Notes under the pieces: generated by a model
Told to the model about the DNA's origin: nothing
Database searches by the model: none
Seen by the model: only the letters and a program-made list of their open reading frames with translations
Position numbers and translations under genes: made by a program
Shown here: positions 50,908-64,000 of the stretch, one piece after another
Layout: each line of letters opens with the position of its first letter
How positions within the stretch are numbered: position 1 is the stretch's first letter
Assembly (NCBI GenBank): GCA_047602405.1
Contig: JASGHJ010000002.1
Coordinates: 832,001-896,000, forward strand
DNA: 64,000 bases
Source of the DNA: Anaeromyxobacteraceae bacterium
GTDB taxonomy: Bacteria > Myxococcota > Myxococcia > Myxococcales > Anaeromyxobacteraceae
Reading direction: 5' to 3'

Positions 50908-52494
50908 ATGAGCCCGACCGAGCGCGCGATCGAGAGCCTGCCCCCGCACCTGCGCCGCTTCGCGGTCGCCCAGGACTACGCCGCGTACACGGCCCGCGAC
51001 CACGCGGTCTGGCGGCACATCCTCCGCCGCCTCACCGCGCTCCTCGAGGGCAAGGCGCACCCGCGCTACCTGGCCGGCCTCGCGGCGACGGGCATCGAGG
51101 TCGAGCGGATCCCGAGCCTCGACGAGATGAACGAGCGGCTCGCGCGGGTGGGCTGGTCGGCGGTGTCGGTGCGCGGCTTCATCCCGCCGGCGGTGTTCAC
51201 CGAGCTCCAGTGCCGGCGCGTGCTCGCCATCGCGGCGGACATCCGCACGCACGAGCACATCGAGTACACGCCGGCGCCCGACATCGTGCACGAGAGCGCG
51301 GGCCACGCGCCCTTCATCGCCGATCCGACCTACGCCGAGTACCTGCAGCGCTGCGGGGAGGTCGGGTGGAAGGCCATCGCCTCCGCCGAGGACCAGGCGG
51401 TCTTCGAGGCGATCCGGAACCTGTCGGTCGTGAAGGAGGACCCGAGCGCGCCCGCCTCCGAGGTGAAGCTCGCGGAGGAGCGGCTGGCCGCGGCGTCGGC
51501 GAGCGTGCGCTACGCCTCCGAGTCCACCCGCGCGAGCCGGCTCTACTGGTGGACGGCCGAGTACGGGCTCGTGGGCGAGCTCTCCGCGCCGCGGATCTAC
51601 GGCGCGGGGCTCCTCTCCTCCATCGGCGAGGCGCGGCACTGCCTCTCCTCCGAGGTCGCGAAGCTGCCGCTCACCGCCGCGTGCGCGGACCAGGTCTACG
51701 ACATCACGCGCATGCAGCCGCAGCTCTTCGTGGCGCGCGACTTCGATCAGCTCTTCGAGGTGCTCGAGGCCTTCGCGGCCACGCTCTCCTGGCGCAGGGG
51801 AGGCGACCACGGGCTCGAGACGGCGCTGCGCGCCTGCACGGTGAACCACCTCGTGCTCTCCGGCGGGCGCGAGCTCACCGGGCGGGTGGTGGAGCGGCTC
51901 ACCGGCCCGCGCGACCTCGCGCCGGGGCTCTCCACGATGCTCGCCCGCCTCGAGGGGCCGGTGCTCGTCTCGAGGGGCGGCGTGGCGCAGGGGAAGCCCT
52001 GGCCCGGCGAGGTGGTGGTGGCCTTCGGCGACGCCCGCCTCCCCGACCGCGGTGCGTTCGAGGTGCGCCTCGCGGGCGGGCTCGTGCTGCGCGGCTTCGC
52101 GGTGGGCGGCGGCGAGGTGGTGCACCTCACGGGCACGCGCGAGGGCCGGGCGGTCGCGCTGCCGTCCTGGGCGCTCCTCTTCGTCTCCGACGGGCTGCCC
52201 TCGGTGGCGGGCGGACCGGCGGATCCCGCGGCGTGGGATCGCTGGTTCGGCGAGCTCGGCAGCTTCACCGAGGGCGAGGGCGAGGCGCGGGCCCGGGCGG
52301 CGAAGGCCGCGGCGCTGCCCGCGGCGCTCGGCGCGCTCTACGCCGAGGTGCGCAGGCTGCGGGAGACCGGCGGGGCCACGCGCGAGCGGCTCCTCGCGAT
52401 CCGCGACGCCGCGCGGCCGTACGGCGAGGACTGGCTGCTGCAGGCGGAGGTGGAGGAGCTGTTGCCCCCGGCCCAGGCCGCGGAGGCCCGCTAG
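50908..52494 (+). CDS. Biopterin-dependent aromatic amino acid hydroxylase (long PhhA type)
   Basis: YTPAPDIVHESAGHAP iron-binding His pair, WWTAEYGL, YGAGLLSSIGE, YDITRMQPQLFV. Confidence 0.88.
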   Translation: MSPTERAIESLPPHLRRFAVAQDYAAYTARDHAVWRHILRRLTALLEGKAHPRYLAGLAATGIEVERIPSLDEMNERLARVGWSAVSVRGFIPPAVFTELQCRRVLAIAADIRTHEHIEYTPAPDIVHESAGHAPFIADPTYAEYLQRCGEVGWKAIASAEDQAVFEAIRNLSVVKEDPSAPASEVKLAEERLAAASASVRYASESTRASRLYWWTAEYGLVGELSAPRIYGAGLLSSIGEARHCLSSEVAKLPLTAACADQVYDITRMQPQLFVARDFDQLFEVLEAFAATLSWRRGGDHGLETALRACTVNHLVLSGGRELTGRVVERLTGPRDLAPGLSTMLARLEGPVLVSRGGVAQGKPWPGEVVVAFGDARLPDRGAFEVRLAGGLVLRGFAVGGGEVVHLTGTREGRAVALPSWALLFVSDGLPSVAGGPADPAAWDRWFGELGSFTEGEGEARARAAKAAALPAALGALYAEVRRLRETGGATRERLLAIRDAARPYGEDWLLQAEVEELLPPAQAAEAR

Positions 52495-52943
52495 TTCGGC
52501 TTCGCCGCCGGCCCGTGGCGGACGGCGTCCGGGTCGCGGCGCGCGGGGTTGCTCCGCGCGAGGAACTCGCCCAGCGGCACGTCGTTCATCCGGGTGTGGT
52601 AACGCAGCCACTCCGGCATGCGCGTGCGGACGATCTCGACGAGGCTCGGGGTGGGGCCGGCGCGCGTGATCTCCTGCTGCACGCCGAGCACGTCGGAGAC
52701 GAGCATGTCGTGCGAGGTCTTGTGGCGGAGCCGCTCCGGGTAGAGCGTCTCGACCATGATCCGCTCCTCCGCGGCGAGGTGGGCCACGAGGGCCTCCCCG
52801 AACCGGTTGAGCGCGACGAGGAGCGCGTCGCCGGGCAGCTCGACCGCGTCCGCGGCCACCTGGAGGAGGCGGAAAAGCCCGCGGTGCTGCGGATCGATCA
52901 GGTCGTGGTTCAGCGTCAGGTCCGGCGTCCACTCCGTCGACAT
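52491..52943 (-). CDS. Bacteriohemerythrin
   Basis: EW...L....IDPQH, HLAAEE..M, YP...H...H, WL..HT..D. Confidence 0.85.
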   Translation of the reverse strand: MSTEWTPDLTLNHDLIDPQHRGLFRLLQVAADAVELPGDALLVALNRFGEALVAHLAAEERIMVETLYPERLRHKTSHDMLVSDVLGVQQEITRAGPTPSLVEIVRTRMPEWLRYHTRMNDVPLGEFLARSNPARRDPDAVRHGPAAKPN

Positions 52944-56122: not shown

Positions 56123-57231
56123 GGCGCGGCCCCCGGGCCACCCCGGATGCGCGCCGCGAGGGTGCACGCCTCCCGGTCGCCCGCCGCGCACGCCTCCTCG
56201 AAGCGCAGGAGGCCCTCGAACGGATCCTTCGGGCGGCCGTCGCCCGTGTAGAGCCGGTACCCGAGCATGTGCGCGATCGAGGCCACGTGGCGGCGGACGT
56301 CGGCGCGGAACTCCTCGTCCACGCCCGGCCGCGCGGGCCGGTCGAGCGGCCGGAGCAGCACGAGCGCCTCCTCGAGGCGGCCCTCCTGGGCGCGCGCGAG
56401 CGCCCGGTAGAAGCCGAAGGACTCGCCCTTCATGCCCTGCTGGTCCGCGTCGTCGAGGAGCCGGTTCGCCTCCATGAAGTCGCGGCCCCGGAGCGCCTGG
56501 TAAATCCGGTCTCCGAGCACGAGGGTGTCGTAGCGGGTCGGGCCGGGGCGCGGGCGGAGCGCGAGCGCGAGCGCCACGGCGAGGAGCGCGGCGCCGGGCA
56601 GGGCGGCCCGCCAGCGCGGGGCGGGCGCGAGCCGGACGAGCGCCACCGCGGCGCCCGCCGCGAAGCCGCCGGCGAGCGCGAGCCGGTCGGGTCCGAGCAG
56701 GTCGTTCCAGGCCGCGCCGGCAGGCAGCGCAGCCGGCGCGAGCGCGTCGGCGAGGAGCGCCGCCGCGGCCCAGGCGAGCCGGGGCCGCAGCGTGCGGGCG
56801 AGGGGCCCGGCGCCCGCGGCGTGCAGGACGAGCAGCGCGGCGGCGAGCCCGAGCACGACGCCCCCCGAGCCGGTGGAGACGGCGTCCGCGCCGAGGAGGG
56901 TGGCCGCGCCCGCACCGACGGCGGAGGCCGCCCAGGCGACGGCGAGCCAGGTGGTGCCGAGCGTCGCCTCGAGCAGGCTGCCCACGAGGAGCACGCCGAC
57001 GGCGTCCCCGAGCATGCGGCCCCCGGACGCGTGCAGGAACGGCGCGGTGAGGAGTCGCCAGGCCTGCCCGTCCCAGACGCGCCCGCGCTCGAGGGCCCCC
57101 CACGAGACGAGGGACAGCTCGTCCCCGGCGCCACGGGTCGCCGTCCACCCGTAGGCGGCGGCCATGGCGACCGAGAGCACCAGCGCACCCGTACCGATGG
57201 TGATCCGTGTCGCTGGGACGGGGGGCGGCAT
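56119..57231 (-). CDS. Rhomboid-fold membrane protein with TPR/Sel1-like tail, catalytic dyad apparently absent
   Basis: GQAWRLLTAPFLH rhomboid motif; expected GASG is GSGG and expected AHLGG is ALAGG. Confidence 0.75.
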   Translation of the reverse strand: MPPPVPATRITIGTGALVLSVAMAAAYGWTATRGAGDELSLVSWGALERGRVWDGQAWRLLTAPFLHASGGRMLGDAVGVLLVGSLLEATLGTTWLAVAWAASAVGAGAATLLGADAVSTGSGGVVLGLAAALLVLHAAGAGPLARTLRPRLAWAAAALLADALAPAALPAGAAWNDLLGPDRLALAGGFAAGAAVALVRLAPAPRWRAALPGAALLAVALALALRPRPGPTRYDTLVLGDRIYQALRGRDFMEANRLLDDADQQGMKGESFGFYRALARAQEGRLEEALVLLRPLDRPARPGVDEEFRADVRRHVASIAHMLGYRLYTGDGRPKDPFEGLLRFEEACAAGDREACTLAARIRGGPGAAP

Positions 57232-57295
57232 CCGGGGGGAGTGTACCGGGGCCGTGGGCGGGTGTAACCCGCCGTTTCCGGCTAGGATCCCTGCG

Positions 57296-58219
57296 ATGCC
57301 GGAATTCGTGTTCAACCCCCGCCGCTCGCCCCGCGCGCCAATCCGCTGCGCCACGCAGGTCATCACCGCCCGCGGCACCGTGGACGCGACGACCGAGGAC
57401 GTGGGCATGCGCGGCGTGCAGGTCGTGTCGCCGAGGCAGCTGCACAAGGGCGAGCCGATCCGGCTGATCCTCGAGCACCCCACCGTGAAGCGCGCGCTCG
57501 AGCTCGCGGGCCACGTGAGCTGGGCGACCCCGCACGCGCCCTGGCGCGCCGGCGTCGCGTTCGACGAGCAGGGCCTCGGGGCGGCCCGCCGCTGGTACGA
57601 GCAGCTCGTCGAGGCGAACCCGGGCCTGCCGACGCTCGACCGCGTGCCGGACCGCATCGCGCTCGACGCCTCGGTGTTCCTCGGGGCGCCGCCGCGCTGG
57701 GTCGTCGACTTCACGGTGGACGAGGCGCTCGTGCTCCGCGCGATCGGCAGCGGCGCGACGCTCGAGGACCTGAAGGTGAAGCTGCGCGACCGCTGGGGTG
57801 CCTGCCAGCGCGCGGTGTTCTCGCTGCTCGCGCGCCACCACGTGACGCTGCAGCGCGGGCAGGGCGTGCACCCCGACGCCTGGAAGCGGATCCTCGCCGA
57901 CCTCGAGGCCGAGGCGGCCCTCGGCGAGATCGCGCCGCCCACGCCCACGCCCGCTCCCGTGGCCATCCGCCCCGCGCCCCCGGTCGCGGCCCCGGTCGCG
58001 GCCCCGGCGCCCGTCCCGGCCCCGGCGCCCGCCGCGAAGGGGCGCTCGCCGGACGCCGAGGAGTGCCTGCAGCGCGGCCTCGCCGAGCTCGGCAAGGGCA
58101 ACATCGCGAGCGGCGTCGCCCTGCTCCGGCGCGCCGCGCAGCTGTCGCCCGGCGACGAGGAGATCCTGACGACGCTCTGGAAGGCCTCCTCGACGGCGGC
58201 CTCCTCGCGGCGGGCGTAG
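57296..58219 (+). CDS. PilZ domain protein with Pro/Ala linker and C-terminal TPR
   Basis: RRSPR and DVGMRG PilZ-like motifs, GVAF. Confidence 0.78.
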   Translation: MPEFVFNPRRSPRAPIRCATQVITARGTVDATTEDVGMRGVQVVSPRQLHKGEPIRLILEHPTVKRALELAGHVSWATPHAPWRAGVAFDEQGLGAARRWYEQLVEANPGLPTLDRVPDRIALDASVFLGAPPRWVVDFTVDEALVLRAIGSGATLEDLKVKLRDRWGACQRAVFSLLARHHVTLQRGQGVHPDAWKRILADLEAEAALGEIAPPTPTPAPVAIRPAPPVAAPVAAPAPVPAPAPAAKGRSPDAEECLQRGLAELGKGNIASGVALLRRAAQLSPGDEEILTTLWKASSTAASSRRA

Positions 58220-58301
58220 TCCCAGGAACTTCCGGCGGTTCTTGAACTCGCCTCGCGGCGCTGGTACCACGTCGGGACACCCCGACCGAGGGCCCCCCAC
58301 G

Positions 58302-61300
58302 ATGTTCAGAATCGTCCGCCGCGAGGCGTTCTCCGACACGACCTTCCTGTGGGAGGTGGAGGCGCCCGACGTGGCCGCCTCCGCCGAGCCCGGCCACTTC
58401 GTGATGGTCCGCCTGCACGAGGGCTCGGAGCGCATCCCGCTCACCGTCGCCGACTTCGATCGCGAGCGGGGCACGATCACGATGGTGATCCAGGCCCTCG
58501 GCAAGACGACGAAGGAGATGATGGCCCGCTACGCGGAGGGCGACGCCTTCGACGACTTCGTCGGCCCGCTCGGCCTCCCGCAGCACGTCGGCAAGGTCGG
58601 CCACGTGGTGCTGGTCGGCGGCGGCCTCGGCGTCGCGCCGGTCTACCCCCAGCTGCGCGCGTTCAAGGCGGCCGGCAACCGGACCACCGGCGTCATCGGC
58701 TTCCGCTCGAAGGGGCTCGTCTTCTGGGAGGACCGCTTCCGCGACCACTGCGACGACCTCGTCGTCTGCACCGACGACGGCTCGTACGGCAAGCCCGGCT
58801 TCGTCACGCAGGCGCTGAAGGAGCTCTGCGAGAAGGACCGGCCGGACCTCGTCGTCGCGATCGGTCCCTTGCCGATGATGAACGCCTGCGTCGAGACCAC
58901 CCGCCCGTTCGGCGTGAAGACCATGGTCTCCCTGAACGCGATCATGGTCGACGGCACCGGCATGTGCGGCTCCTGCCGGGTGACGGTGGACGGCAAGGTG
59001 AAGTTCGCCTGCGTCGACGGCCCGGACTTCGACGGCCACCAGGTCGACTTCAAGGAGCTCACCGCCCGCCAGCGCCGGTTCAAGGCCCAGGAGGCCGCGG
59101 CGGGCGAGGACTACGCGCACGTCTGCAACCTCGAGAAGCAGCTCTTCGAGGAGCAGAAGCGCAACTACAAGAAGCTGAAGGAGCTCCAGCCCACCCAGAC
59201 GCACATGCCCGAGCGCGACGCGCTCGAGCGCGCCCGGAACTTCAAGGAGGTCAACCTCGGCTACCGCCTCGAGGAGGCGCTCGTCGAGGCCGAGCGCTGC
59301 ATCCAGTGCGCGAAGCCGACGTGCATCGCGGGCTGCCCGGTCGGCATCGACATCCCGAAGTTCATCCGCCACCTCCTCGTCCGCGACCTCGACGGCGCGC
59401 TCCAGGCCATCCACGGCTCGAACCTGTTCCCGTCCATCTGCGGGCGGGTCTGTCCGCAGGAGAGCCAGTGCGAGGCGCAGTGCATCATCGCGAAGAAGAT
59501 GGAGCCCGTCGCCATCGGCCGCCTCGAGCGGTTCGTGGGCGACCACGCCATCCCGGAGGCGCCCGCCGGGCGCCGGGTGGCCGGCCTCGGCAAGGTCGCG
59601 GTCTGCGGCTCCGGCCCCGCCGGCCTCGCCTGCGCCGCCGACCTCGTTCGGATGGGCGCCGACGTGACCGTGTACGAGGCGCTGCACGTCGTCGGCGGCG
59701 TGCTCCGCTACGGCATCCCCGCCTTCCGCCTCCCGCGCGAGATCATCGACCGCGAGGTCCGCTACCTCGAGTCCCTCGGCGTGAGGTTCGTGACGAACCG
59801 GGTCATCGGGAAGACCTTCACCGTCCCGCAGCTCATGAAGGATCGCGGCTACGACGCCGTGTTCCTCGGCGTGGGCGCGGGCGCGCCGGCCTTCCTCGGC
59901 ATCCCGGGCGAGTTCGCCGGGCAGGTCTACTCGGCGAACGAGTTCCTCACCCGCGTGAACCTGATGGGCGGCGACCGGTTCCCGTACCTCGACACGCCCA
60001 TCGCGCTCGGGAAGAGCGTCGTGGTCGTGGGCGCGGGCAACACCGCCATGGACTGCCTGCGGGTCGCGAAGCGGCTCGGGGTGCCCACCGTGCGGTGCGT
60101 GTACCGCCGCAGCGAGGCCGAGGCGCCCGCGCGCATCGAGGAGCTCCGCCACGCGAAGGAGGAGGGGATCGAGTTCCACTTCCTCCACTCGCCCACCGAG
60201 ATCATCACCGACGAGGGCGGCAACGTGAAGGGCATGAAGGTCGAGCGCATGGTGCTCGGCGAGCCCGACGCGAAGGGGCGCCGCAAGCCCATCGGCACCG
60301 GCGAGCTCGTCGAGCTCGCGTGCGACACGGTCATCGCGGCCCTCGGCACGAAGGCGAACCCGATCGTCGCGGGCTCCACGCCCGGCCTCCAGACCGACCC
60401 CCGCGGCAACATCGCCGCCGACGACGGCGGGCCGGGCGCCACCCAGGCCACGAGCCTCCCCGGCGTCTTCGCGGGCGGCGACATCGTGACCGGCGGCGCG
60501 ACCGTGATCCTCGCCATGGGCGCCGGCCGGAGGGCCGCCCGCGCAATCGGCGCGTATCTGTCTCTGGGCAAGAAGTGGCCGCTCGCCCGCGAGGACGTCG
60601 ACGCGTTCGAGCCGCCCACGCCCGCGCTCGAGCCCGCCGAGGCGCCGGCGCGCTTCGCCGGGGCCACCGCGCAGGCGGGCGCGCTCCAGGCGGCCGTGGG
60701 CGCCTGCCCGCGCTGCCACCAGCCGATCGAGGGCGACGAGTCCTACGTCTGCTGCGCGGGCGCGTCGCTCTCCTGGCGGTGCACCGCCTGCGGGAAGGTC
60801 GACGAGGGCTTCGCGTTCCCGTACGGCCAGTGCCGCGCCTGCGGCGGCAGGCTCGAGACGGTCACCCCGCGGGAGGTCGCCGGGGCCGCGCCGCTCGAGG
60901 CGGTCCGCACCGCGTTCGAGATCGAGCTCGGCGGCATGGCGTTCTACGGGCGCGCCGCCGAGGAGGCGAAGGATCCCGAGCTGAAGGAGCTCTTCGGCCG
61001 GTTCGCCGGCATGGAGCGCGAGCACATGGCGACGCTCTCGCGCCGCTACCACGTGCGCCCGCCGGACCCGTCCGAGGGCTTCCACACCGATCGCGCCGCG
61101 GTCTACGCCGGCATCCCGAGCCACCCCGGGGACCCCGCCAACCTGTTCCGGATCGCGATCGCGTTCGAGCAGCGGGCCGTGGAGTTCTTCGAGGGGAGGG
61201 TGGGGCAGACCGCGGCCGGGTCGCCCGAGCGGCAGCTCTACCTGGAGCTCGCCGCGGAGGAGCGCGAGCACGTCGACCGGCTCGTCACCGAGCTCGAGCG

Positions 61301-61331
61301 GTGGAAGCGGGGCCAGCGCGGCCTCCTCTGA
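58302..61331 (+). CDS. Fused NfnA-NfnB (SudB/SudA-like) electron-bifurcating transhydrogenase with C-terminal Cys-rich and rubrerythrin/ferritin-like domains
   Basis: ERIPLT, GGGLGVAP, MVDGTGMCGSCR..CVDGP (NfnA); RCIQC..CIAGCP, CGRVCPQESQCE, GSGPAG, GAGNTAMD, FAGGD (NfnB); CxxC pairs and two EREH motifs. Confidence 0.9.
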   Translation: MFRIVRREAFSDTTFLWEVEAPDVAASAEPGHFVMVRLHEGSERIPLTVADFDRERGTITMVIQALGKTTKEMMARYAEGDAFDDFVGPLGLPQHVGKVGHVVLVGGGLGVAPVYPQLRAFKAAGNRTTGVIGFRSKGLVFWEDRFRDHCDDLVVCTDDGSYGKPGFVTQALKELCEKDRPDLVVAIGPLPMMNACVETTRPFGVKTMVSLNAIMVDGTGMCGSCRVTVDGKVKFACVDGPDFDGHQVDFKELTARQRRFKAQEAAAGEDYAHVCNLEKQLFEEQKRNYKKLKELQPTQTHMPERDALERARNFKEVNLGYRLEEALVEAERCIQCAKPTCIAGCPVGIDIPKFIRHLLVRDLDGALQAIHGSNLFPSICGRVCPQESQCEAQCIIAKKMEPVAIGRLERFVGDHAIPEAPAGRRVAGLGKVAVCGSGPAGLACAADLVRMGADVTVYEALHVVGGVLRYGIPAFRLPREIIDREVRYLESLGVRFVTNRVIGKTFTVPQLMKDRGYDAVFLGVGAGAPAFLGIPGEFAGQVYSANEFLTRVNLMGGDRFPYLDTPIALGKSVVVVGAGNTAMDCLRVAKRLGVPTVRCVYRRSEAEAPARIEELRHAKEEGIEFHFLHSPTEIITDEGGNVKGMKVERMVLGEPDAKGRRKPIGTGELVELACDTVIAALGTKANPIVAGSTPGLQTDPRGNIAADDGGPGATQATSLPGVFAGGDIVTGGATVILAMGAGRRAARAIGAYLSLGKKWPLAREDVDAFEPPTPALEPAEAPARFAGATAQAGALQAAVGACPRCHQPIEGDESYVCCAGASLSWRCTACGKVDEGFAFPYGQCRACGGRLETVTPREVAGAAPLEAVRTAFEIELGGMAFYGRAAEEAKDPELKELFGRFAGMEREHMATLSRRYHVRPPDPSEGFHTDRAAVYAGIPSHPGDPANLFRIAIAFEQRAVEFFEGRVGQTAAGSPERQLYLELAAEEREHVDRLVTELERWKRGQRGLL

Positions 61332-61443
61332 GCGGGGGCGAAGCCCCGGGAGCACGGGCGCACCCCGGCGAGGGCCCGCCATTTCCCGGTTGGCCCTCGC
61401 GTCGACTTCGGGTTAAGGCCTCCTTCTCCCCGGAGGGTGGACC

Positions 61444-62271
61444 ATGCGGCTCGACGACGACGGCGATCGCTCGAACGTGGAGGACCGGCGCGGCCTCGGC
61501 GGCGCGGGCGTGAAGCTCGGGCTCGGCGGCACGCTCGTGCTGATCGTGCTCTCGCTCGTCTTCAAGCAGGACATGTTCGCCCTCCTCGGCACCTCGCCGG
61601 GCGGCAGCGGCGGCGGCGCGGTCTCGCAGGAGGAGGCGCAGCAGCGCACGGCCGCCGAGCAGGCGCTCGAGAAGACCGCCGTGGCGACCTTCAACGACGC
61701 CCAGCGGCGCTTCGCCTCGATGGTGCGCGGCTACCGCCCGGCGAAGCTCGTGCTGTTCTGGGACCGGGTCGACTCGGGCTGCGGCGCCGCCGAGGCGGCG
61801 ATGGGGCCGTTCTACTGCCCGGCCGACGAGAAGGTGTACATCGACCTCGGCTTCTACCGGGAGCTCGCCTCGCGCTTCGGCGCGCCGGGCCAGTTCGCGC
61901 AGGCGTACGTCATCGCCCACGAGGTCGGCCACCACGTCCAGAACGTGCTCGGCACCTCCGAGAAGGTGCACGACGCGCAGGCGCGCGACCCCGGCCAGCG
62001 GAACCCGCTCTCGGTGCGGCTCGAGCTGCAGGCCGACTGCTACGCGGGCGCGTGGGGCCAGACGGCGCAGCAGCGCGACCTGCTCGATCCGGGCGAGGTC
62101 GAGCAGGGGCTGCGCGCCGCGGCGGCCGTCGGCGACGACCGGATCCAGAAGGCCGCGACCGGCCGCGTGAACCCCGAGGCGTTCACGCACGGCTCCGCCG
62201 AGCAGCGGATGCGCTGGTTCAAGACCGGCATGGACGCGGGCGACCTCGCGGCGTGCGACACGTTCCGGTAG
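61444..62271 (+). CDS. YpfJ-like neutral zinc metallopeptidase
   Basis: SNVEDRRG, GPFYCPAD, AHEVGHHVQ, ELQADCYAG, FTHGSAEQR. Confidence 0.92.
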   Translation: MRLDDDGDRSNVEDRRGLGGAGVKLGLGGTLVLIVLSLVFKQDMFALLGTSPGGSGGGAVSQEEAQQRTAAEQALEKTAVATFNDAQRRFASMVRGYRPAKLVLFWDRVDSGCGAAEAAMGPFYCPADEKVYIDLGFYRELASRFGAPGQFAQAYVIAHEVGHHVQNVLGTSEKVHDAQARDPGQRNPLSVRLELQADCYAGAWGQTAQQRDLLDPGEVEQGLRAAAAVGDDRIQKAATGRVNPEAFTHGSAEQRMRWFKTGMDAGDLAACDTFR

Positions 62272-62987: not shown

Positions 62988-64000
62988 ATGAAGAAGGTGC
63001 TCGAGGCGCTCGCCTCCCTCAAGGTCGTCGTGCTGCTGCTCGTCCTGCTCCTGGTCGGGCTGGCGGCCGGCACCATCACGGAGTCGAAGATGGGCACCGA
63101 GGTCGCCCAGCGCGCCGTGTACTACGCTTGGTGGTTCCTGCTCCTCCAGGGCGTGTTCGCGACGAGCGTCATCGCCTCGCTCATCCAGCACTTCCCGTGG
63201 GGGAAGGAGCGGCTCGGGTTCCTGACCCTGCACGCCTCGCTCGTCATCATCTTCCTCGGGTCGGCGGTCACCTACTTCTGGAAGACCGAGGGCCAGCTCG
63301 GGCTGTGGGAGGGCGAGACCGGGAGCCGAATCCACGACCCGGCCTCGGGCGTCGCGACCCCGCACGCGCTGCCCTTCCAGGTGAGGCTCATCGACTTCAA
63401 GCTCGACCGCTACCCGGGCACGATGCGGCCGGCGATGTTCTCGTCGATCGTCGAGATCATCGACGAGACCGGCACGCGCCAGGAGCGGATCTGGATGAAC
63501 CACCCGCTCCACTACAAGGGCTACAGCCTCTTCCAGTCGAGCTACCAGCAGCAGGGCGACCGCGAGGCCTCGGTGTTCTCGGTCTCGAAGGACCCCGGCC
63601 AGAACATCGTGTTCCTGGGCTACGCGCTCCTCGTGGGCGGCATGTGCCTCGTGCTCTTCACCCGCGCCGCGCAGGTGAAGAAGAAGGCCGCGATGGAGGC
63701 CGCGCTCGGCCTCGGCGAGAAGGCGGCGATGATCCTCGTGCTCGGCGCGCTCGCGCTGCCCGCCCAGGCGCTCGACCCGGCCCAGCTCGAGGCGATCCGC
63801 CGGCTGCCGGTGCAGCACGACGGCCGCAGCATGCCGCTCGACACGCAGGCGCGCGAGGCGGTCTGGAAGGTGACGGGCTCCTACCGGTTCGAGGGCGAGG
63901 ACCCGGTCGCGACCGTGATGCGCTGGACCTTCGATCCCCAGGCGGCCACCCAGCAGAAGCTCGTCAAGCTCGGCAGCTCGGATCTCGCCCTCGCCGCCGG
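62988..64000 (+). CDS. Cytochrome c biogenesis protein (ResB-like, probably CcsBA fusion), 5' part; runs off the right edge
   Basis: SD GGAGG; LASLK..V.LL, VYYAWWF, LHAS...I, YPGT..P, IWMNHPL.YKGY.LFQSSY, DPG, VQHDGR..PLDT. Confidence 0.85.
   Translation, partial: MKKVLEALASLKVVVLLLVLLLVGLAAGTITESKMGTEVAQRAVYYAWWFLLLQGVFATSVIASLIQHFPWGKERLGFLTLHASLVIIFLGSAVTYFWKTEGQLGLWEGETGSRIHDPASGVATPHALPFQVRLIDFKLDRYPGTMRPAMFSSIVEIIDETGTRQERIWMNHPLHYKGYSLFQSSYQQQGDREASVFSVSKDPGQNIVFLGYALLVGGMCLVLFTRAAQVKKKAAMEAALGLGEKAAMILVLGALALPAQALDPAQLEAIRRLPVQHDGRSMPLDTQAREAVWKVTGSYRFEGEDPVATVMRWTFDPQAATQQKLVKLGSSDLALAA

Follow-up and report, generated by a model that had tools for sequence, protein, structure and literature searches.

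What might an electron-bifurcating enzyme gain from a predicted metal-binding tail on its own chain? The question is raised by one gene in a 64,000-nucleotide stretch of DNA from Anaeromyxobacteraceae bacterium (assembly GCA_047602405.1, contig JASGHJ010000002.1, positions 832,001 to 896,000 of the forward strand; the whole stretch is called the window below). NfnAB is normally a two-subunit flavin-bifurcating NADPH:ferredoxin/NAD oxidoreductase (Nfn). At 58302-61331 (+) of the window, a single open reading frame (ORF), running from ATG to stop, encodes a protein of 1009 aa in which both Nfn subunits are followed by a linker, a Cys-rich segment and a four-helix domain. This layout had been described in a first-pass annotation made from the letters alone, and it was confirmed by the frame and by the Pfam matches (DHODB_Fe-S_bind 212-249, Fer4_20 310-417, Pyr_redox_2 431-741, Rubrerythrin 867-994). 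The feature is real, widespread and catalogued, a member of a known family, and its parts are as follows.

58288..58292, +: GAGGG, Shine-Dalgarno-like, 9 nt 5′ of the ATG (read from the sequence, function presumed)
58302..61331, +: whole gene, 1009 aa, PRK12775/AadN-type single-chain Nfn with tail
58302..59096, +: NfnA-like part, aa 1-265, with the FAD motif ERxPxT, an NAD domain and the [2Fe-2S] ligands D217, C222, C225 and C237
59097..59195, +: NfnA/NfnB joint, aa 266-298, predicted helical, mean column identity 0.78
59196..60563, +: NfnB-like part, aa 299-754 (from the match to Thermotoga maritima NfnB, Foldseek and conservation)
60606..60701, +: Ala/Pro linker, aa 769-800, predicted disordered (confidence score pLDDT <50 at 775-799), 12-98 residues in homologues
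60702..60857, +: eight-Cys module, aa 801-852, CxxC-x11-CC plus CxxC-x13-CxxC, predicted to form two sites for a single Fe or Zn each
60888..61307, +: ferritin-like four-helix bundle, aa 863-1002, with a predicted di-iron site (AlphaFold2 pLDDT 87, fold match to 2oh3, conservation)

Frame, core and family

GC content at third codon positions is 0.99-1.0 across every part of the 1009-aa ORF, and a long antisense ORF over the gene was put down to the shadow frames that are common in GC-rich DNA. By its nearest named relatives, the host is Anaeromyxobacter-like. A regular expression holding the eight Cys and the two ExxH motifs was matched by none of 200,000 shuffles of residues 770-1009, and by all 120 long and all 120 short homologues among the matches listed. 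Stops between the modules were looked for in independent sequence and none was found: a separate Anaeromyxobacter assembly (L003) has the identical open frame across the NfnB-tail junction with a tail 95% identical, and two contigs from two other sequencing runs span 59955-61497 with 0 gaps. An assembly artefact at this junction is ruled out by these sequences. In a screen of sequencing runs by sampled sequence words, no run contained half of the words, and RNA runs contained 0.05-0.06 of them. Gene copies in three other assemblies are frameshifted (L018, L070 and L077, the last in eight pieces), probably by sequencing errors, and one Anaeromyxobacter genome (G196, C19 and C118) holds two equal-scoring full copies, which reflect either a duplication or an assembly repeat.

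The assignment of the core to NfnA and NfnB was borne out by kept cofactor ligands and by high scores to NfnI and NfnB. In the NfnB-like part, C333, C336, C341, C345, C380, C384, E387, C390 and C394 would hold two [4Fe-4S] clusters, R476 would be the Arg at N5 of the bifurcating FAD, and R602, R603 and R611 the NADPH arginines, roles which were assigned in part by alignment with 4ylf_B. All Nfn cluster ligands and the NADPH arginines are kept in 129/129 full-length rows, R476 in 128/129, and the NfnA FAD motif residues (E43, R44, P46 and T48) together with the [2Fe-2S] motif in 128-129 of the 129. The NfnA part scores 315 bits to the small subunit of Pyrococcus furiosus NfnI versus 179 to NfnII, and its GFR and TDDGSYG segments align with NfnI, unlike 5vj7_B, which suggests an NfnI-type NAD+ pocket rather than an NfnII/Xfn one. 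The NfnB part scores 485 bits to T. maritima NfnB, and its model matches 5jca_L with a Foldseek E of 2.6e-47 and a TM-score on the target of 0.89. From its sequence, the core very probably does ordinary Nfn chemistry under anoxia. The Nfn review (Liang 2019, PMC6405883; this and the other papers cited here were available in part) describes NfnII as NAD-blind, and gives the cofactor motifs and Nfn potentials of +80, -513 and -718 mV.

Because the full-length protein passes the cut-off of NCBIfam NF009413/PRK12775 (ORF 1-1009 against model 1-1006, 1905.2 bits versus a cut-off of 1895), the architecture is already catalogued, and hence the value of this gene lies in testing the tail, not in discovery. 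The family is titled 'putative trifunctional 2-polyprenylphenol hydroxylase/glutamate synthase subunit beta/ferritin domain-containing protein'. The database label of glutamate synthase small subunit was rejected, with NfnA fused and the GltD models under their cut-offs (TIGR01318, 365 versus 483; TIGR01317, 249 versus 448); no gltB-sized neighbour is present in the window. With residues 770-1009 as query, 613 proteins were found (7,996 candidates scored, length limits 554-1766 aa), and a profile of the tail found 1,507 proteins of 110-391 aa, fragments among them (7,999 scored). Named carriers include Anaeromyxobacter, Thiocystis, Magnetospirillum, Roseiarcus, Siculibacillus, Propioniciclava, Acidobacteriota and Rhodopseudomonas. 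Within the host phylum, a strong full-tail match (E<1e-80) occurs in 39/41 genomes of the host family versus 0/123 of the largest sister family, counts which come from kin and hence are not independent. The survey of domain architectures that the first-pass annotation had proposed therefore returns a curated family, widespread in bacteria. Its remark that no enzyme of this architecture had been characterised needs to be divided: the architecture is catalogued in NCBIfam and the orthologue AadN has been studied genetically, while no biochemical study of the tail was found in searches of the openly accessible text of the literature, in which one phage paper mentions PRK12775 once.

The tail and its partnership with the core

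The Cys of the tail fall into the groups C802/C805, C817/C818, C827/C830 and C844/C847, and the predicted di-iron ligands form a 4-Glu/2-His set, E875, E905xxH908, E956 and E987xxH990. Across 60 diverse rows, these six ligands and Y882 are kept in 58-60, an extra conserved E986 adjoining the bridging Glu in 59, the second Cys4 site in 60 and the first site in 55-57; the surface motif GFAFPYG between the Cys pairs is present in 119-120 of 120 homologues among the matches listed. Judged from these residues, the tail is likely to hold a di-iron pair and, at two further sites, one metal ion each. There is a weak likeness between the second Cys4 site and the rubredoxin domain of rubrerythrin (Desulfovibrio vulgaris rubrerythrin 143-177, E 3e-4; hhalign 87.6%; PF21349 in 15/60 rows), and zinc-ribbon models match it too. 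The first site is similar in motif shape to the FeS4 domain of desulfoferrodoxin; desulforedoxin homology of this CxxC...CC site is unsupported, since hhalign gives 3% with the other Cys pair aligned, and no supported homologue of the site was found. The eight-Cys module searched alone gave no usable Atlas match, which bears on neither novelty nor absence.

AlphaFold models the tail as a small beta module followed by the four-helix bundle, with a pLDDT of 87. The bundle aligns with 2oh3 (VIA Z 13.3, root-mean-square deviation 3.0, 126 residues aligned), and ferritins and bacterioferritins match it about equally; these fold searches covered the bundle only, and a Z of ~13 for a helical bundle shows fold only. 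Foldseek on the tail gave no match at E<=0.001. As a separate observation, the halves of the bundle (60888-61307) align crosswise with 2FZF and 2OH3, the first half lying on their second, which hints at circular permutation or at internal symmetry.

The domain had been called rubrerythrin-like. What stands of this is the four-helix bundle with its E, ExxH, E, ExxH set; what does not stand is the closer likeness, as the rubrerythrin ExxE is ExxA in 52/60 rows and the Cys sites lie N-terminal to the bundle. The extra helix-C Glu of rubrerythrins falls at position 959, which is Ala in 52, Thr in 5, Ser in 2 and Gln in 1 of the 60 rows and never Glu, whereas the helix-C ExxE is present in a comparator rubrerythrin and in both rubrerythrin-type proteins of the host. 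Moreover, the NCBIfam rubrerythrin model matches 5/60 rows, with a best E of 0.003. The rubrerythrin hallmark is a five-Glu site with redox-linked Glu/His ligand switching (PMC6616624), and the helix-C pair is E90/E93 in BpRbr (BpRbr preprint). Because the extra Glu is missing, the tail is not a rubrerythrin.

How firmly the tail belongs to the core was assessed across genomes. Among 160 loci found via the tail, 82 are fused, 59 have the tail as a separate gene directly behind a fused nfnAB, 17 have short upstream DNA and 2 are without a core; the label 'fused' refers to the junction alone, a few loci carry frameshifts in other places, and one 'split' locus (L069) has an nfn remnant only. A stop-start overlap, which would couple translation, is present in 7/14 split loci inspected. 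Searches with the core only, in 401 genomes of each of two proteobacterial orders, gave 12 cores of at least 70% identity (three of them from the seed genomes); the tail lies directly behind 11/12, and the twelfth ends 260 nt from the end of its contig. Among less closely related NfnAB loci that have 800 nt or more of downstream sequence, 0/29 carry the tail. On a quick tree of 53 loci and the query with 10 outgroup rows, in which fused and split rows were hand-picked and no root test was made, 6 changes are needed to explain the fused state, no fewer than 3 of them forced by strong branches; hence fusion and fission have recurred. The tail is an autonomous partner protein with a tight genetic link to the core. 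Tethering of the acceptor in cis, which the first-pass annotation had put forward, is not required, as the tail is a separate next gene in 59 of the loci.

The Cys/di-iron module also occurs at the N-terminus of aromatic-acid CoA ligases (L145 736-2928, L152 3537-5705 and L069 5980-7584; proteins P0127 and P0131). These fusions lie in hcr operons in which nfn is absent or a remnant, and the two proteins checked retain every ligand.

What the tail may do

Genetics of an orthologue bear on the role of the whole enzyme. The 994-aa protein of Rhodopseudomonas palustris TIE-1, which shares its 90% cluster with BisB18, aligns end to end with the window protein at 67% identity over 1015 columns, scores 2136.9 bits with PRK12775, and keeps all 8 Cys and all bundle ligands. 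AadN is RPA0678, an Nfn homologue (Lewis, Sarne and Fixen 2023, PMC9973337); we equated it with the TIE-1/BisB18 cluster by primer translation and the strain list, the CGA009 accession being absent among the 15 of 64 members listed. Three aadN primers (Table S2) translate into the TIE-1 protein, one of them being the last five residues plus the stop. Because the primers match this protein to its stop, the tail forms the end of AadN and was lost with it in the published deletion. Genome searches across the family gave no copy of the R. palustris gene above 80% identity. In the available text of that paper, R. palustris needs aadN to grow without oxygen on benzoate and 4-hydroxybenzoate, while growth on cyclohexane carboxylate does not depend on it; across strains, the presence of aadN excludes that of korAB, and an aadN suppressor allele supplies nitrogenase. 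By analogy with this orthologue, supply of low-potential electrons under anoxia is the likely role of the window protein. AadN was treated there as a plain pattern B Nfn, with no enzymology, and 'ferritin' and 'rubrerythrin' occur 0 times in the available text, figures aside; 'ferritin' has 0 occurrences in the available part of the Nfn review, which distinguishes four Nfn patterns.

The published AadN change 'C38W' may lie outside the protein, in that residue 38 from the conserved start is Leu and the first 80 residues hold no Cys (P0413, P0534, P0536, P0537, P0539). In longer AadN gene calls a Cys lies four codons 5′ of the conserved Met, and would be codon 38 if the start were 41 codons upstream, as one relative is called. 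The change would then fall in the ribosome-binding zone, ~10 nt 5′ of the true ATG, where its effect might simply be a higher level of AadN.

The contexts of relatives were compared with that of the window gene. Relatives precede PFOR (pyruvate:ferredoxin oxidoreductase, at 11 loci), a gene like dihydroorotate dehydrogenase (DHOD) and a YfhL ferredoxin, lie among nifV, iscA-type, fdxN and fixC-like genes in L048 and L051, and follow hcrA/hcrB, which encode 4-hydroxybenzoyl-CoA reductase, in L065 and hcrA in L069. PFOR, nif and 4-hydroxybenzoyl-CoA reductase contexts need or make reduced ferredoxin. FNR-like boxes were found 5′ of 9/10 betaproteobacterial loci versus 0/32 others, in a scan that used the general FNR consensus and allowed <=2 mismatches, without a shuffle control. 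Neither an FNR-like box nor a sigma-70 promoter-like site was found upstream of the window gene, and no conserved operon was found round the gene in Anaeromyxobacter, in which neighbours vary by lineage. The host genome has PFOR, YfhL ferredoxin and 2-oxoacid oxidoreductase-like genes, and gave no close hcrA/hcrB match and no nifH.

Two further arrangements were seen among relatives. In betaproteobacterial operons the DHOD-like flavoprotein (PRK07565) directly follows PFOR, as in L044 10397-11404 and 10 similar loci. One deep-branching family (L193 11065-11793, L194 9301-9783, L193 7357-7605, L195 535-777) has a split nfn-tail pair flanked by bacterioferritin, with a small Bfd-like ORF in L193, and by a convergent YfhL ferredoxin at 2/3 loci. 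The window gene stands among unrelated genes, without redox neighbours:

50908-52494, +: aromatic amino acid hydroxylase PRK14056
about 52515-52900, -: small hemerythrin-like ORF, by eye
56119-about 57100, -: divergent membrane protein, rhomboid-like by eye, common to ~10 Anaeromyxobacter loci
57164-58219, +: no NCBIfam match at 1e-8, PilZ-like by eye, common to ~10 Anaeromyxobacter loci
61444-62271, +: YpfJ-type zinc metallopeptidase
62988-64000, +: beginning of a gene probably for cytochrome c biogenesis, by eye

The reading that we favour, with belief and doubt evenly balanced, is that the single-chain Nfn couples NADPH, NAD(H) and ferredoxin by bifurcation for anoxic low-potential reactions, and that the tail is a putative built-in oxidant sink; for the tail itself an oxidant-reducing role is our best guess. 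Under anoxia, the tail would be filled once with a few electrons and would then cost nothing. Upon entry of O2 or H2O2, the di-ferrous site would reduce the oxidant and would be refilled from the Nfn chain via the Cys4 sites, so that the Fe-S clusters of Nfn and its partners would be shielded. Bifurcation would not be short-circuited, because a reduced tail would keep its electrons for as long as no oxidant is present. CperHydR, a hydrogenase-rubrerythrin chimera in which two rubredoxin sites and a di-iron site are fused to a reductase, reduces H2O2 (PMC11926857) and may serve by analogy as a precedent for such a tail. Anaeromyxobacter dehalogenans shows microaerophilic growth and is without catalase (PMC2330069).

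Several findings weigh against the oxidant sink. The FNR-like boxes suggest induction by anoxia, not by peroxide, and the host has two stand-alone rubrerythrin-type genes with the helix-C ExxE, i.e. redundancy. The tail lacks the seventh ligand on which the redox-linked switch of rubrerythrins depends, and its best fold matches are to COG1633, ferritin and bacterioferritin bundles. At 2 loci the tail is fused to a CoA ligase with no Nfn upstream. The linker is disordered in the full-length model, with a pTM of 0.66, and hence this model does not place the tail relative to the core. As regards the core, some Nfn homologues are without bifurcation (PMC6405883).

A first alternative, doubtful but the one that survives best, keeps a normal Nfn core and lets the tail handle iron, by binding, buffering or reductively releasing Fe2+ for the building or repair of the Fe-S clusters of Nfn and its partners; the protein would then resemble a one-chain reductase-Bfd-ferritin or RIC-type system. 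The ligand set and the best folds, ferritin/bacterioferritin/COG1633-like, would agree with iron handling, as would the conserved E986 beside the bridging Glu; bacterioferritin adjoins nfn in L193 and L194, an IscA-type gene is present in L048 and L051, and the FNR-like boxes would fit a biogenesis role during anaerobic induction. However, a 110-kDa enzyme with a single di-iron site can store little iron, bfr and iscA each occur as neighbours in one lineage only, and tandem Cys4 sites suggest an electron relay for turnover.

The first-pass annotation had proposed a self-contained NAD(P)H-driven peroxidase. That the whole protein is dedicated to this job, with Nfn merely feeding the tail, would explain why the tail stands behind 11/12 cores of the clade, and CperHydR is, by analogy, such a dedicated chimera. 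Nevertheless, we consider it improbable, as a peroxidase as the main job fits poorly with the loss of anoxic aromatic growth, not of growth on cyclohexane carboxylate, when aadN is lost, with the korAB exclusion and the suppressor allele that feeds nitrogenase (PMC9973337), with neighbours that produce or consume ferredoxin, and with the FNR-type boxes in Betaproteobacteria. Moreover, a costly bifurcating core would be unneeded to reduce a high-potential site, and the gene is the only close Nfn found in the host.

That the tail gates the enzyme as a sensor of oxygen or redox state seems just as improbable. The oxidised tail would here block ferredoxin docking or electron flow and thereby spare electrons from O2; the near-invariant GFAFPYG motif may be a docking face, and the hosts are facultative or microaerophilic. 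Against such gating, linkers range in length from 12 to 98 residues, many loci encode the tail on its own, and it persists on a CoA ligase where nfn is absent or a remnant.

Rubredoxin-type sites lie at about -0.1 to +0.3 V, and the Nfn branch potentials match them on the high-potential side. The tail could thus be a second, high-potential outlet of bifurcation, in which the [2Fe-2S] branch (+80 mV) would pass electrons via Cys4 to the di-iron site and then to H2O2, O2 or NO in place of NAD+, driving ferredoxin reduction; a long flexible linker could reach NfnA, and FixABCX uses quinone as such an acceptor (PMC9973337). This reading is the least probable of all, since low-potential ferredoxin is short-lived in O2, and since NAD+ remains the likely acceptor with the NfnI NAD-binding features fully kept.

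The answer would matter beyond this gene. Bifurcation yields electrons at about -500 to -900 mV, a hazard once oxygen arrives, and the clade is near-universal in the Anaeromyxobacter family and spread in facultative Proteobacteria, Acidobacteria and Actinobacteria, almost always carrying the partner module. If the tail is an oxidant sink or a gate, it would show how bifurcation is made safe across the oxic-anoxic boundary, and would bear on attempts to transfer Nfn, or the electron supply of nitrogenase, to aerobic hosts. If it is a high-potential outlet, facultative anaerobes would gain low-potential electrons from an oxidant leak and could spend them on nitrogenase, the reduction of aromatic rings and metabolism linked to PFOR. 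Because the tractable orthologue AadN of R. palustris has mutants, the question of the tail is directly testable.

Comparison with known systems

The A-B order and all cofactor motifs of the window protein are common to T. maritima NfnAB (4YLF), P. furiosus NfnI (5JCA) and the pattern B fused Nfn (PRK12778), and its large subunit is 50-53% identical to those of 4YLF and 5JCA in structural alignments. In contrast to NfnAB and NfnI, the window protein is one chain with an extra tail (~211-240 aa), and against PRK12778 it stays below the cut-off (975 versus 1103). With PRK12775 the architecture is alike throughout, the family name being a list of domains with misleading labels. The host of AadN differs from the window host, which is without a close hcrA/hcrB match and nifH and has no redox genes beside the gene.

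For the bundle, the best sequence and fold matches are COG1633-type proteins (2OH3, 2FZF, TM1526/1VJX), bacterioferritin and ferritin, which are alike in 4-Glu/2-His spacing but without the eight-Cys module and the Nfn link. Rubrerythrin, reverse rubrerythrin and CperHydR share with the tail a four-helix bundle with two ExxH motifs, whose di-iron site is a prediction in the tail, and have a rubredoxin Cys4 site, which one Cys4 site of the tail weakly resembles. CperHydR has a reductase in the same chain, as in the window protein, and two rubredoxin sites. Compared with rubrerythrins and CperHydR, the tail is without the helix-C ExxE, its Cys sites come before the bundle, its first site is CxxC-x11-CC, and the reductase to which it is joined is a flavin-bifurcating Nfn.

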